Below the pieces are notes generated by a model. That model was not told the DNA's origin and searched no databases. It worked only from the letters and a program-made list of their open reading frames with translations. Made by a program: the position numbers and the translations under genes. Of a DNA stretch of 21,185 nucleotides, positions 7,491 through 9,464 are shown one piece after another. This stretch comes from Candidatus Heimdallarchaeota archaeon (GTDB lineage Archaea > Asgardarchaeota > Heimdallarchaeia > JABLTI01), in NCBI GenBank assembly GCA_030614005.1, contig JAUWKS010000055.1, positions 1 through 21,185 of the forward strand. Reading direction: 5' to 3'. The number at the start of each line of letters is the position of its first letter. Position 1 is the first letter of the stretch.

Positions 7491-8222
7491 TTACTCTTCT
7501 GATTCCTTTTCTTTACTCTCTTCTGGTTCTTGTATAACTTCGTTACCAATTTCAATCATTAATTTACGAATGTAGAACATTCTTTGAATTGTTGTTATAA
7601 ATGATAACAAACCTACCAATATAATTCCAATAGGTAATGCTACAGGCCACCAGATAAAAAGTATGTTGCCAAGTACTAGAATCAATATTTTCTCTCTTCG
7701 CTCCATTATTCCGACGCTTTCAACATTCATTTGTGCAACGCTTTCACCTCGTGCTCGAGAGTAACTTGCAAAGATCATTCCTGCAAAGGAGAACAAACAC
7801 CATGCAGATACTGAGATTGTAGCAATTCCAGGCCAATGAGTCTCGAGAGGTTCGAATGTATAAATTCCAATGGCAATTCCGAACAAGTAACAAAATTCAA
7901 CGAATCTATCCATAACCGGATCTAACACTTGTCCAAATTTGGTTGTTTTTCCCATTGATCTTGCTACAGAACCATCTACTACATCAAGCATTCCAGCGAT
8001 AAACATTAATGGAAAACCAATTGCCCACCAATACTCAAATGTACCCACTCTGCCATTGAATGCATACATTGTTGCAGATGCTATTGCAAACATTGCAGAA
8101 ATCATTGATATGGCATTTGGCGTTATACCCATTTTTCCAATAAATCGACCAAATGGAAGCATCATCTTCTTATATCCGCCCCTTGTCCTTAACTTAAATT
8201 TGCGCCACCAAGACATGAACAT
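7491..8222 (-). CDS. pgsA: CDP-alcohol phosphatidyltransferase (archaetidylinositol phosphate synthase-like)
   Basis: Signature DVVDGSVARSMGKTTKFGQVLDPVMDR; ITPNAIS; SYSRARGES; G.MERREK; multiple TM helices. Start ATG 8222 or 8216. Confidence 0.9.
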   Translation of the reverse strand: MFMSWWRKFKLRTRGGYKKMMLPFGRFIGKMGITPNAISMISAMFAIASATMYAFNGRVGTFEYWWAIGFPLMFIAGMLDVVDGSVARSMGKTTKFGQVLDPVMDRFVEFCYLFGIAIGIYTFEPLETHWPGIATISVSAWCLFSFAGMIFASYSRARGESVAQMNVESVGIMERREKILILVLGNILFIWWPVALPIGIILVGLLSFITTIQRMFYIRKLMIEIGNEVIQEPEESKEKESEE

Positions 8223-8266
8223 CAACAAACTATCTTCTGATATTATATAATCATAAAATAACCTAC

Positions 8267-8280
8267 TTTAAAACCATTTC
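8267..8280 (-). promoter_or_regulatory. Putative BRE/TATA promoter for pgsA operon
   Basis: Minus strand GAAATGG-TTTTAAA; a second TATA-like ATTATATA lies closer to the start. Confidence 0.4.
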
Positions 8281-8357
8281 TAACCTTTCAGCAATAAAGA
8301 ATTCAGCAGAATAAAAGATGTGAAGAAACGATGTCCCCCAACACACTAACACACTTG

Positions 8358-8610
8358 TATCACCGATTAGAATAATTCTTCCTCAACCGTGGTCTCTCGA
8401 GGTGGGAGTAGTTAGTCATTTCTTCGGGGATGAAAGCAGCTCAATTGTGTGGGCGACTTGGGTTGACTTTTTCCTCATCGCAAAGCAATACGCATAAGCT
8501 AGGAAAAGAGCCGTTTAAAGTCGTCGATAGTCAATTTATGCTCTCGTGCGAGTCCAGTGTGCGCCTCCCCTTGCTTTGGTGGTCATTGCAAGAATATTCC
8601 AACTATCACC
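8358..8610 (+). repeat. 7-bp direct repeat TATCACC (8358-8364 and 8604-8610) flanking the structured element
   Basis: Both copies directly abut the imperfect terminal inverted repeats (GATTAGAATAATTCTT vs reverse complement GTTGGAATATTCTT), as a target-site duplication would. Confidence 0.6.
8365..8603. other. Structured non-coding element (candidate ncRNA or MITE): long imperfect inverted repeat
   Basis: ~46% GC by hand count (111/239), clearly higher than the flanking intergenic DNA. Six nested helices all centre on ~8488, plus a C(UUCG)G hairpin at 8417-8432. No credible ORF. Confidence 0.6.
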
Positions 8611-8731
8611 AACTCTCTAGAAGGCTTATCCTATCATCATGTACTTTATACAGATATTGAGAATAAAAAAGCTTGCTTAAAACAGAAAATGACAAGTCAA
8701 AGTGACTTGTACATTGCCAGATTTTTTTTAT

Positions 8732-9286
8732 TTATTGTAACGCTGAACCACAAGTCACACAGAATTTATCCTTAGCGGTTATCTTAGAACCGCAATATGG
8801 GCAGTATCCTTGATCTTGCATATTCTGCATAATTGGAGTAATCTCTATACCTTCAGGTTCACTAATCTTCTTGCTTGCATTTATTGGTGTGGGAGTTGTT
8901 GTTCCAATTGGAGGTTGTCCTTTTACTTCAAACACCACTACTTCACCGCTTTCAGGATCAAATGAAGCTTTTAGTTTTCCTTCTGCTCGTAAATCAACAA
9001 TCATCTCTTTTAGATCACGCTTTTTCATACGGAGTTCTTCACTTAGCTGATTCAGTTGTACTCTCTGGTAGGATTTTAACGCACCTAATACTTTCTCACG
9101 ATTATAGCGATAACTGAGAATATTAGAGATACCGGCAATTAATAGTATTCCACCTGGAATAAACATCCAGTAACTTCCAGGAGTATTTGGAAATCTTACT
9201 GCAATTATGCCCCAGATAATAAAACCGATGCCAAATGATAAGGTCCAGAGATTTCCGCGACCGAATGAACGTTCTATGTAACCCAT
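8732..9286 (-). CDS. Membrane protein with 2 TM helices, PCI-like winged helix and C-terminal zinc ribbon
   Basis: TM1 LWTLSFGIGFIIWGIIAV, TM2 WMFIPGGILLIAGISNIL; YQRVQLNQLSEELRM...MIVDLRAEGKLKASFDPESGEV (PCI pattern); CPYC...FCVTCG. Start ATG 9286 or GTG 9298. Confidence 0.78.
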   Translation of the reverse strand: MGYIERSFGRGNLWTLSFGIGFIIWGIIAVRFPNTPGSYWMFIPGGILLIAGISNILSYRYNREKVLGALKSYQRVQLNQLSEELRMKKRDLKEMIVDLRAEGKLKASFDPESGEVVVFEVKGQPPIGTTTPTPINASKKISEPEGIEITPIMQNMQDQGYCPYCGSKITAKDKFCVTCGSALQ

Positions 9287-9464
9287 TTTGTAAATCACAT
9301 CAAATAGTTGTAATAATTTCTTTCTAATACTAAATTGCTCATTAAGCTAAAAAAACCTTTACTATCAGAACTTGAAGAAAAGTTGTTTCAATAGTTAGTT
9401 TTATAAGCTAATAAGTAACACAAAAAAAACTGCTTTTAAACGAGAGTATGCTCTGGTTATTATC

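Follow-up and report, generated by a model that had tools for sequence, protein, structure and literature searches.

The window, a stretch of 21,185 nucleotides (nt) of Candidatus Heimdallarchaeota archaeon (contig JAUWKS010000055.1), contains between a PCI/zinc-ribbon gene and pgsA what is very probably the gene of a box H/ACA guide small RNA (sRNA), about 300 nt long, with three hairpins and encoded on the minus strand. All coordinates follow the numbering of the window, and position p of the RNA corresponds to window position 8651-p. The approximate transcript comprises positions 8328-8640 on the minus strand, as indicated by a conserved block in 16 homologs, the absence of a conserved open reading frame (ORF) and contigs from RNA libraries. 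Judged by sequence comparison, the element is a diverged and expanded ortholog of the three-motif RNA HgcG/Pab40/Pf7/Afu4 (Rfam family RF00064), linked to it only through intermediates. It is neither a transposon nor a new RNA class. The "unassigned element" of the initial annotation is replaced by a functional RNA gene. The possibility of a structured RNA, raised there, is borne out by a single syntenic locus, covariation and occurrence in RNA libraries; that of a novel noncoding RNA is not, as the RNA belongs to the H/ACA kind and RF00064 matches its relatives from sister families.

The element is situated between the upstream PCI/zinc-ribbon gene (8732-9298, minus strand) and the downstream gene of a CDP-alcohol phosphatidyltransferase (pgsA, 7491-8228, minus strand). 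The description of this stretch as noncoding with ~46% GC holds, with 44-47% G+C against a background of ~30-39%. The genome assembly to which the window belongs (126 contigs, 90% complete) possesses one copy, and one copy each is found in a sister genus and in nine of ten same-genus genomes, at 73-95% nucleotide identity; these relatives are recorded as Heimdallarchaeota metagenome-assembled genomes. Metagenome contigs included, the homolog set consists of 16 distinct sequences; 9 of the 17 loci from a metagenome pattern scan were chance or coding matches. The conserved block extends over ~8322-8640 and is broader than the interval 8358-8610 delimited at first. Gene order is constant across the relatives (PCI gene, element, pgsA, ORF of 214 amino acids), and in the window's own Heimdallarchaeial family (f1) the element invariably follows the PCI gene at a distance of 75-90 nt, in the same orientation. 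No reading frame is open throughout the relatives, and the plus-strand ORFs 8430-8660 and 8557-8775 are unconserved; a protein-coding gene is rejected.

A miniature inverted-repeat transposable element (MITE), or another mobile element with a 7-bp target-site duplication, had been suggested by an exact TATCACC on both sides, which is present at 8358-8364 and 8604-8610. This repeat is, however, only one (D12) of 13 direct-repeat families of at least 7 nt in a 601-nt stretch, and it is not kept in relatives. In the sense of the RNA both copies read GGUGAUA and lie within conserved helices or K-turns (kink-turns), one at the K-turn of hairpin A and one at that of hairpin C; the 3' copy is an arm of a covarying helix, in which GGUGGU/AUCACC is replaced by GACGGU/ACCGUC in relatives. 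Terminal inverted repeats are lacking. A mobile element is refuted by copy number and synteny, i.e. one copy per genome between the same genes, and is now extremely improbable; a single syntenic copy with covariation is the outcome that had been named in advance for a noncoding RNA.

In the minus-strand reading, the RNAalifold consensus of the 16 sequences forms 66 pairs in three hairpin domains and no single rod, with 98% of the cells paired. Compensatory changes are found at 15 pairs, compared to 6.5 +/- 1.7 in shuffles (0/500 reach 15) and to 1-6 with slid partners. According to our own tally from the pair types of this consensus, about 150 of the 1056 paired cells are G.U; pairs common to both strand predictions comprise, in plus-strand letters, 26 A.C versus 9 G.U. 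As the G.U cells would be A.C mismatches on the plus strand, the RNA corresponds to the minus strand. The earlier lean to this strand was right; the UUCG hairpin cited for the opposite orientation is located on the plus strand, not on the strand of the RNA. A rod of ~235 nt, likened to 6S RNA, had been deduced from nested complementary segments. The energy of 8358-8610 does not differ from dinucleotide shuffles in a way that would suggest it (z = -0.06 for the minus, +0.47 for the plus strand), and covariation supports three separate hairpins instead. Part of the nested segments recurs in the covarying consensus as the middle hairpin (8432-38/8539-45, 8453-59/8518-24 and 8469-75/8501-07), whereas 8367-80/8590-8602 and 8404-08/8565-69 fall outside it and belong to separate hairpins, and 8443-47/8532-36 contains many non-pairs.

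Each hairpin combines a K-turn-like GA motif, an internal loop (pocket) and a 3' ACA box. The ACA trinucleotides at RNA positions 91-93, 201-203 and 317-319 are invariant and follow the upper helices at distances of 14-15, 14 and 13-16 nt, respectively; the spacing rule is 14-15 nt for active archaeal guides (PMC2377435) or, for archaeal guides, 15 +/- 1 nt (PMC7075261). In f2, the second family of the same class, the boxes read AAA, AUA or ACA (ANA pattern), that of hairpin A at 14-15 nt. The bulged strands of the K-turns are AAU-GA, GAU-GA and GGU-GA opposite UA, UA and GA, all invariant in the 16 sequences, and at the sequence level NNU-GA faces UA, AA or GA in all three hairpins across the lineages read. 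In all three hairpins the K-turn loop ends in a 3' U, as is typical of archaeal guides (PMC7075261). Pockets in f1 are small, with 4-5 nt per strand.

Hairpin A (8563-8625, all hairpin features on the minus strand) is defined by the consensus fold, with double changes at four pairs of helix 4 and two pairs of helix 5. It consists of a lower stem (8619-8625/8563-8570), a pocket (5' strand AGAGA, 8614-8618; 3' strand GCAAG, 8570-8574), an upper helix (8606-8613/8575-8582) and an apical stem-loop (8588-8603). Its K-turn was called by eye, with the bulged strand AAU-GA at 8583-8587 and the partner UA at 8604-8605; A65, U66, G67, A68, U46 and A47 of this motif are invariant in the 16 sequences. The upper helix of 6-7 bp is near the Pyrococcus rule of 5-6 bp between pocket and K-turn (PMC2377435). 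The invariant ACA box (8558-8560) is located 14 nt from the upper-helix base G38.U76 and 15 nt from U39-A75.

The core of hairpin B (8452-8525), supported by consensus fold and covariation, is formed by a lower stem (8518-8525/8452-8459), a pocket (5' UAAAC, 8513-8517; 3' AACCC, 8460-8464), an upper helix with a bulged C (8502-8512/8465-8474), a K-turn of UA (8500-8501) with GAU-GA (8475-8479) and an apical stem-loop (8480-8499). Its invariant ACA box is found at 8448-8450, 14 nt past the upper helix. Moderately supported outer stems surround this core at 8423-8552 (8540-8552 with 8423-8437) in f1 only; in these helices 6 and 7, 89-100% of the cells are paired, changes are largely one-sided (G.U), and both are absent from the compact f2 form.

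Hairpin C (8335-8408) shows three pairs with double changes in helix 12, and the register of its upper helix is uncertain. It possesses a lower stem (8401-8408/8335-8342), a pocket (5' strand UCGAGAGA, 8393-8400; 3' strand GUUAGUGU, 8343-8350), an apical hairpin (8369-8379) and a K-turn of GA (8380-8381) with GA (8360-8361), preceded by a loop of 7 nt rather than 3 nt. The 3'-terminal, invariant ACA box (8332-8334) abuts the lower stem and is followed by a U-rich tail.

Homology to RF00064 was traced with two covariance models, R1 for hairpin B and R2 for f1 plus f2. R1 yields weak full-length matches in f2, whose loci represent a compact form of ~240 nt with the same three hairpins and covarying lower stems and upper helices. 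R2 detects one copy in 13 of 14 f2 genomes (52-88 bits) and single weaker matches in the Asgard families f9, f14 and f20; neither model matches f3 and f4 of the same class under strict filters, which is not evidence of absence. The phylum-wide alignment of hairpin B contains double changes at 13 of 21 pairs, in 57 cells versus 23 in shuffles (0/500 reach 57). GGCUC/GAGYC of this hairpin is invariant across Asgard lineages, and its ACCC is fixed 13 nt ahead of the ANA box in every lineage read. Hairpins A and C are present in the flanks of the distant f9, f14 and f20 loci, where their pocket sequences recur, among them GAGAGA and GUUAGUG of hairpin C. An Rfam search of the f9 locus L082 returns RF00064 HgcG (Pab40) with 33 bits (E ~1e-7), and through this alignment hairpin A is homologous to motif 1 of RF00064, with the pocket GCGAGGA/GCGA in the model and UCGAGGA/GCAA in Asgard archaea. 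Scanning 151 genomes of the phylum with RF00064 gives 13 matches (22-52 bits, E 2e-4 to 4e-13) in families including f2, f8, f9 and f12. Those in G012, G030, G053 and G083 are loci already found by R2 and span the entire model (positions 1-276); G012 is the best match (51.9 bits, E 4.4e-13).

Other RNA classes were considered and rejected. RNase P RNA and signal recognition particle RNA are both present above threshold elsewhere in the genome (C82, 125 bits, and C30, 105 bits, respectively). A motif GAGGAAAAAGUC resembled CR-I of RNase P/MRP-like RNAs but pairs locally with covariation. A U3-like or C/D RNA lacks support in a conserved D box within f1.

The genome possesses the partner proteins of an archaeal H/ACA RNA in the form of Nop10 (60 bits), the DKCLD domain of Cbf5 (56 bits, in a frame of 353 amino acids) and two L7Ae-family genes; the match for Gar1 reaches 27 bits, under the curated cut-off of 29.3 bits. 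A small share of the words of the stretch is present in twelve metatranscriptomic runs, which come from several studies of marine sediments and cold seeps. In the four runs mapped, whole contigs from three studies fall inside the element (294 nt, 8335-8630; 241 nt, 8391-8628; 210 nt, 8413-8616) with 90-99% likeness and a word depth of 48 for the 294-nt and 54 for the 241-nt contig. Contigs from two studies end at 8628-8630. The flanking genes have zero contig cover in these four runs, the uncovered part not being evidence. The contigs support a discrete, abundant small RNA without proving it.

The constant position behind the PCI/zinc-ribbon gene could also suggest a cis-acting 3' untranslated region (UTR), or a processed 3' fragment, of that gene rather than an independent RNA. 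This is very improbable, as the f2 homologs are not adjacent to PCI or pgsA and the element is more strongly conserved than the PCI protein (73-95% nucleotide identity versus 46-62% amino-acid identity, outside the G010 copy with 92%). Furthermore, AT-rich TATA-like boxes precede the element, and, as a weak hint, the RNA contigs stop short of the PCI gene.

For the H/ACA guide RNA, we infer protein binding, targets and pseudouridylation from the archaeal H/ACA ribonucleoprotein (RNP) model. L7Ae would bind the K-turn of each hairpin, and the lower stem and ACA box would be the docking site of Cbf5, Nop10 and Gar1. Ribosomal RNA (rRNA) would pair with both strands of the internal loop, leaving between them an unpaired uridine, which Cbf5 would convert to pseudouridine. 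Positions in the genome's own 23S rRNA are counted from 25794 of contig C95; 16S rRNA is absent from this assembly, and a same-genus 16S was used for the target scans. The 23S rRNA gene itself (C95:25794-29052) spans 3259 nt, compared to 2987 positions in the family model, and probably carries expansion segments.

Hairpin A has the best supported of the three predicted targets, which is probably U2672 of 23S rRNA in the peptidyl-transferase segment GGCUUGC-UA-CCUCGAUG. In f2, the guide (5' strand UAUCGAGG, 3' strand GCAA) can form 8+4 bp around the unpaired UA at U2672, the context of which is the universally conserved GGCUUGC-UA-CCUCGAUGUCGG of domain V. It is the best site of the f2 guide in 23S and 16S rRNA; among 300 shuffled guides, 7 reach an equal fit. 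Families f2, f9, f14 and f20 all retain UCGAGG and GCAA as pocket strands. Motif 1 of Pab40 is an experimentally active guide for a conserved site in domain V of 23S rRNA, position 2588 in P. abyssi (PMC2377435); going by numbering offsets, U2672 would be the same site.

A plausible target of hairpin C, with about even chances of being correct, is U2029 and/or U2031 in the loop of helix 69 (UAAC-UAUGA-CUCUC), in an atypical, UNUN-like arrangement. Between helix 69 (GGGAGUAAC-UAUGA-CUCUCUU) and the consensus strands GAGAGA and GUUAGU of this hairpin, two pairing registers are possible, with 4 and 5 or 6 bp; depending on the register, the top of the pocket is occupied by U2029 or by U2031. A single H/ACA stem-loop makes both helix 69 pseudouridines in H. 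volcanii, likewise in an atypical UNUN arrangement and with the same loop UAUG (PMC7075261). The 16S rRNA of G005 (L050, near position 1305 of the scanned sequence) contains CCUCGAGAGAGG, identical and not complementary to the 5' strand CCUCGAGAGA of hairpin C, probably by coincidence.

For hairpin B only a tentative and rather doubtful target can be offered, the third U of GGGUU-U-A-GACC, which would involve pairing on just the 3' side. The invariant AACCC of the hairpin finds its complement in GGGUU of GCUGGGUU-U-A-GACC, the sole GGGUUU in 23S rRNA. This context is that of pseudouridine 2605 in H. volcanii, where the guide has only 5 bp on the corresponding side (PMC7075261). Among other candidates for hairpin B, a 14-bp match at C9:49722 lies inside an ORF of 257 amino acids. 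The T-arm GGGUUCRA of transfer RNA (tRNA) fits ACCC but not the 5' strand of f1, and GGGUUC occurs in only 6 of 17 detected tRNAs. These 17 were found by ARAGORN without intron mode and include a tRNA-Pyl(cta) at C71:90626-90718 with an atypical 3' end, likely a false positive. A large-pocket form of hairpin B (ACGGCUC/AGUCAACCC) would increase the ACA distance to 18 nt and matches no rRNA site.

Strict canonical target scans with all three hairpins gave nothing convincing at first, continuous antisense matches to 23S or 16S rRNA were no better than shuffles, and whole-genome pattern scans for targets retrieved chance matches only.

Several observations speak against a guide RNA of this family. 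Every Asgard match to RF00064 stays below the gathering score of 77 bits. Rfam finds nothing at gathering score in the window and, at E up to 10 over 8150-8800, only chance C/D-box-like matches, and the best match of RF00064 in the whole genome lies elsewhere (9.9 bits), with none at the element. The Rfam comparison proposed in the initial annotation has a divided outcome: relatives match RF00064 below threshold, the copy of the window has no match. As a consequence, the membership of the window's RNA in RF00064 rests on intermediates; the copy is below the score by which this family itself admits members, and its homology is supported through the intermediate loci.

Structurally, the ACA of hairpin B lies in f1 inside an internal loop of a longer stem, and position 2n of the K-turn is U, not G, in two f1 hairpins, A and B. 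With ~10 bp and a bulge, the upper helix of hairpin B and that of hairpin C are outside the Pyrococcus rule; this rule is not universal, since the active stem-loop SL1 of H. volcanii has an upper stem of 8/10 nt with bulges (PMC7075261). The folding energy of the whole transcript is no better than that of shuffles (z = -0.35), not a surprising result for an RNA whose functional loops are large. The metatranscriptomic contigs are assembled and carry no information on strand, true ends or expression level, and carry-over of DNA is possible.

Pairing with rRNA is limited as well. The f1 guide of hairpin A has the same best site with 5+4 bp, which 115 of 300 shuffles equal (not significant alone), and the window's own guide reaches 5+3 bp with three unpaired target bases, a weakness due to a G-to-A change at RNA position 37. 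The pairing of hairpin C leaves 3-5 target bases unpaired and, judged by canonical rules, does not surpass that of shuffles. In hairpin B the 3' strand provides 5-7 bp and the 5' side at most 1 bp, and for this reason its target is given as tentative.

These limits leave room for an H/ACA-like, L7Ae-binding RNA whose main job is not site-specific pseudouridylation, either as a chaperone of pre-rRNA or with one or two orphan hairpins acting on non-rRNA substrates. A chaperone role in pre-rRNA folding or processing is known from eukaryotic snR30/U17. Such a function would agree with the conservation of hairpin B across Asgard lineages, yet without a canonical two-sided rRNA target, with the nearly pocketless hairpin C of f2 and with the 4-5 nt per strand in f1 pockets. 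It is nevertheless improbable, as hairpin A has a predicted canonical target kept across lineages and aligns with the active motif 1 of Pab40 (PMC2377435), and weak 5'-side pairing occurs among active archaeal guides (PMC2377435, PMC7075261).

Within the guide RNA, hairpin B might be a special-purpose H/ACA motif kept throughout Asgard archaea and perhaps working without two-sided guide pairing, which we regard as unlikely. The 5' strand of its pocket varies from 3 to 9 nt across Asgard lineages. If true, GGGUU-U would be modified via a 5-bp duplex on the 3' side alone, or hairpin B would have a non-rRNA substrate or serve as an assembly chaperone; working without two-sided pairing would deviate from the bipartite rule that is standard for guides. 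The sRNA is unusual within the H/ACA kind in its extra stem at hairpin B, long bulged upper helices, U at 2n, small pockets and a conserved hairpin B without a clear two-sided target.

The ends of the sRNA gene contain further features on the minus strand. The U-rich tail UCGUUUCUUCACAUCUUUUAU (8311-8331), with T-rich tracts at the same place in relatives, is likely an archaeal terminator. UGAUGA (8634-8639), resembling a C box and conserved in f1, is located at or near the 5' end, directly ahead of hairpin A; it also occurs in the 5' flank of the f14 relative L083, which possesses CUGA close to the 3' end. In Pyrococcus, the H/ACA RNA Pab21 contains a C/D motif. A candidate promoter is read from sequence alone at 8645-8670 and includes TATAAA (8645-8650, previously placed at ~8647-8652) and TTTTTTATT (8662-8670). 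The latter would fit better as promoter box, because TATAAA is only ~13 nt from the first base in the RNA contigs.

Downstream, CTTTAAAA at 8265-8272 is conserved, with TTTTAAAG as its minus-strand reading. It precedes the start of pgsA (8228) by ~40 nt and probably serves this gene as TATA box; pgsA would accordingly have a promoter of its own downstream of the sRNA gene. Insertions between the sRNA gene and pgsA are found in G010 (225 nt; L009, ~1820-2065) and G009 (~1.5 kb; L027, 3174-4676); the distance from the PCI gene to the sRNA gene is constant despite them. The protein encoded at 8732-9298 (minus strand) is small, with DUF308-like, PCI-like and C-terminal zinc-ribbon matches, and its gene is directly upstream of the sRNA gene throughout f1.

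Three-hairpin H/ACA RNAs of the Pab40/Pf7 type are known from Euryarchaeota. The type is now traced into several Asgard lineages, with the archaeal K-turn (L7Ae) design and not the eukaryotic two-hairpin design of H plus ACA boxes, and standard Rfam annotation misses this sRNA gene in Heimdallarchaeia. The predicted sites, located in helix 69 and the peptidyl-transferase centre, belong to the best-conserved pseudouridylation sites of rRNA and would provide a handle on rRNA modification in the closest archaeal relatives of eukaryotes. Our alignments could seed a broader covariance model. The current understanding of H/ACA RNPs is unchanged.

Compared to known systems, what bacterial 6S RNA and MITEs share with the element is limited to superficial complementarity over long distances and a single short direct repeat; the element lacks a single rod with a central bubble, multiple copies, terminal inverted repeats and a conserved duplication. 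With HgcG/Pab40/Pf7/Afu4 it shares an architecture of three hairpins, in all of which a K-turn or K-loop is combined with an ANA box on the 3' side, and the pocket GCGAGG/GCGA of HgcG/Pab40 motif 1 is similar to UCGAGG/GCAA of hairpin A. The copy of the window differs from HgcG/Pab40 in its greater length (~300 nt), the extra stem wrapped around hairpin B, smaller pockets, upper helices of ~10 bp with bulges in hairpins B and C, and a U at 2n in two K-turns. Haloferax volcanii sR-h45, the H/ACA RNA for 23S pseudouridines 2605, 1940 and 1942 (PMC7075261), resembles it by published description in a long bulged upper stem (8/10 nt) and in the U that ends the K-turn loop on the 3' side. Its 3'-side duplex with the UU-U-A target has only 5 bp, as proposed here for hairpin B with AACCC/GGGUU, and UAUG of helix 69 is handled in an atypical arrangement with several unpaired bases, as proposed for hairpin C. 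In contrast, sR-h45 consists of two stem-loops and a 56-nt linker, versus three hairpins here, and pairs with 3 bp on the 5' side, versus at most 1 in hairpin B. Eukaryotic H/ACA snoRNAs (small nucleolar RNAs) share the chemistry and the spacing rule from ACA to target, and their conserved target sites overlap with those proposed here; the helix 69 pseudouridines, for example, are guided by snR191 in yeast and by U19 in human. Their two-hairpin design includes H and ACA boxes but lacks a K-turn, whereas the Asgard RNA keeps the archaeal K-turn design.

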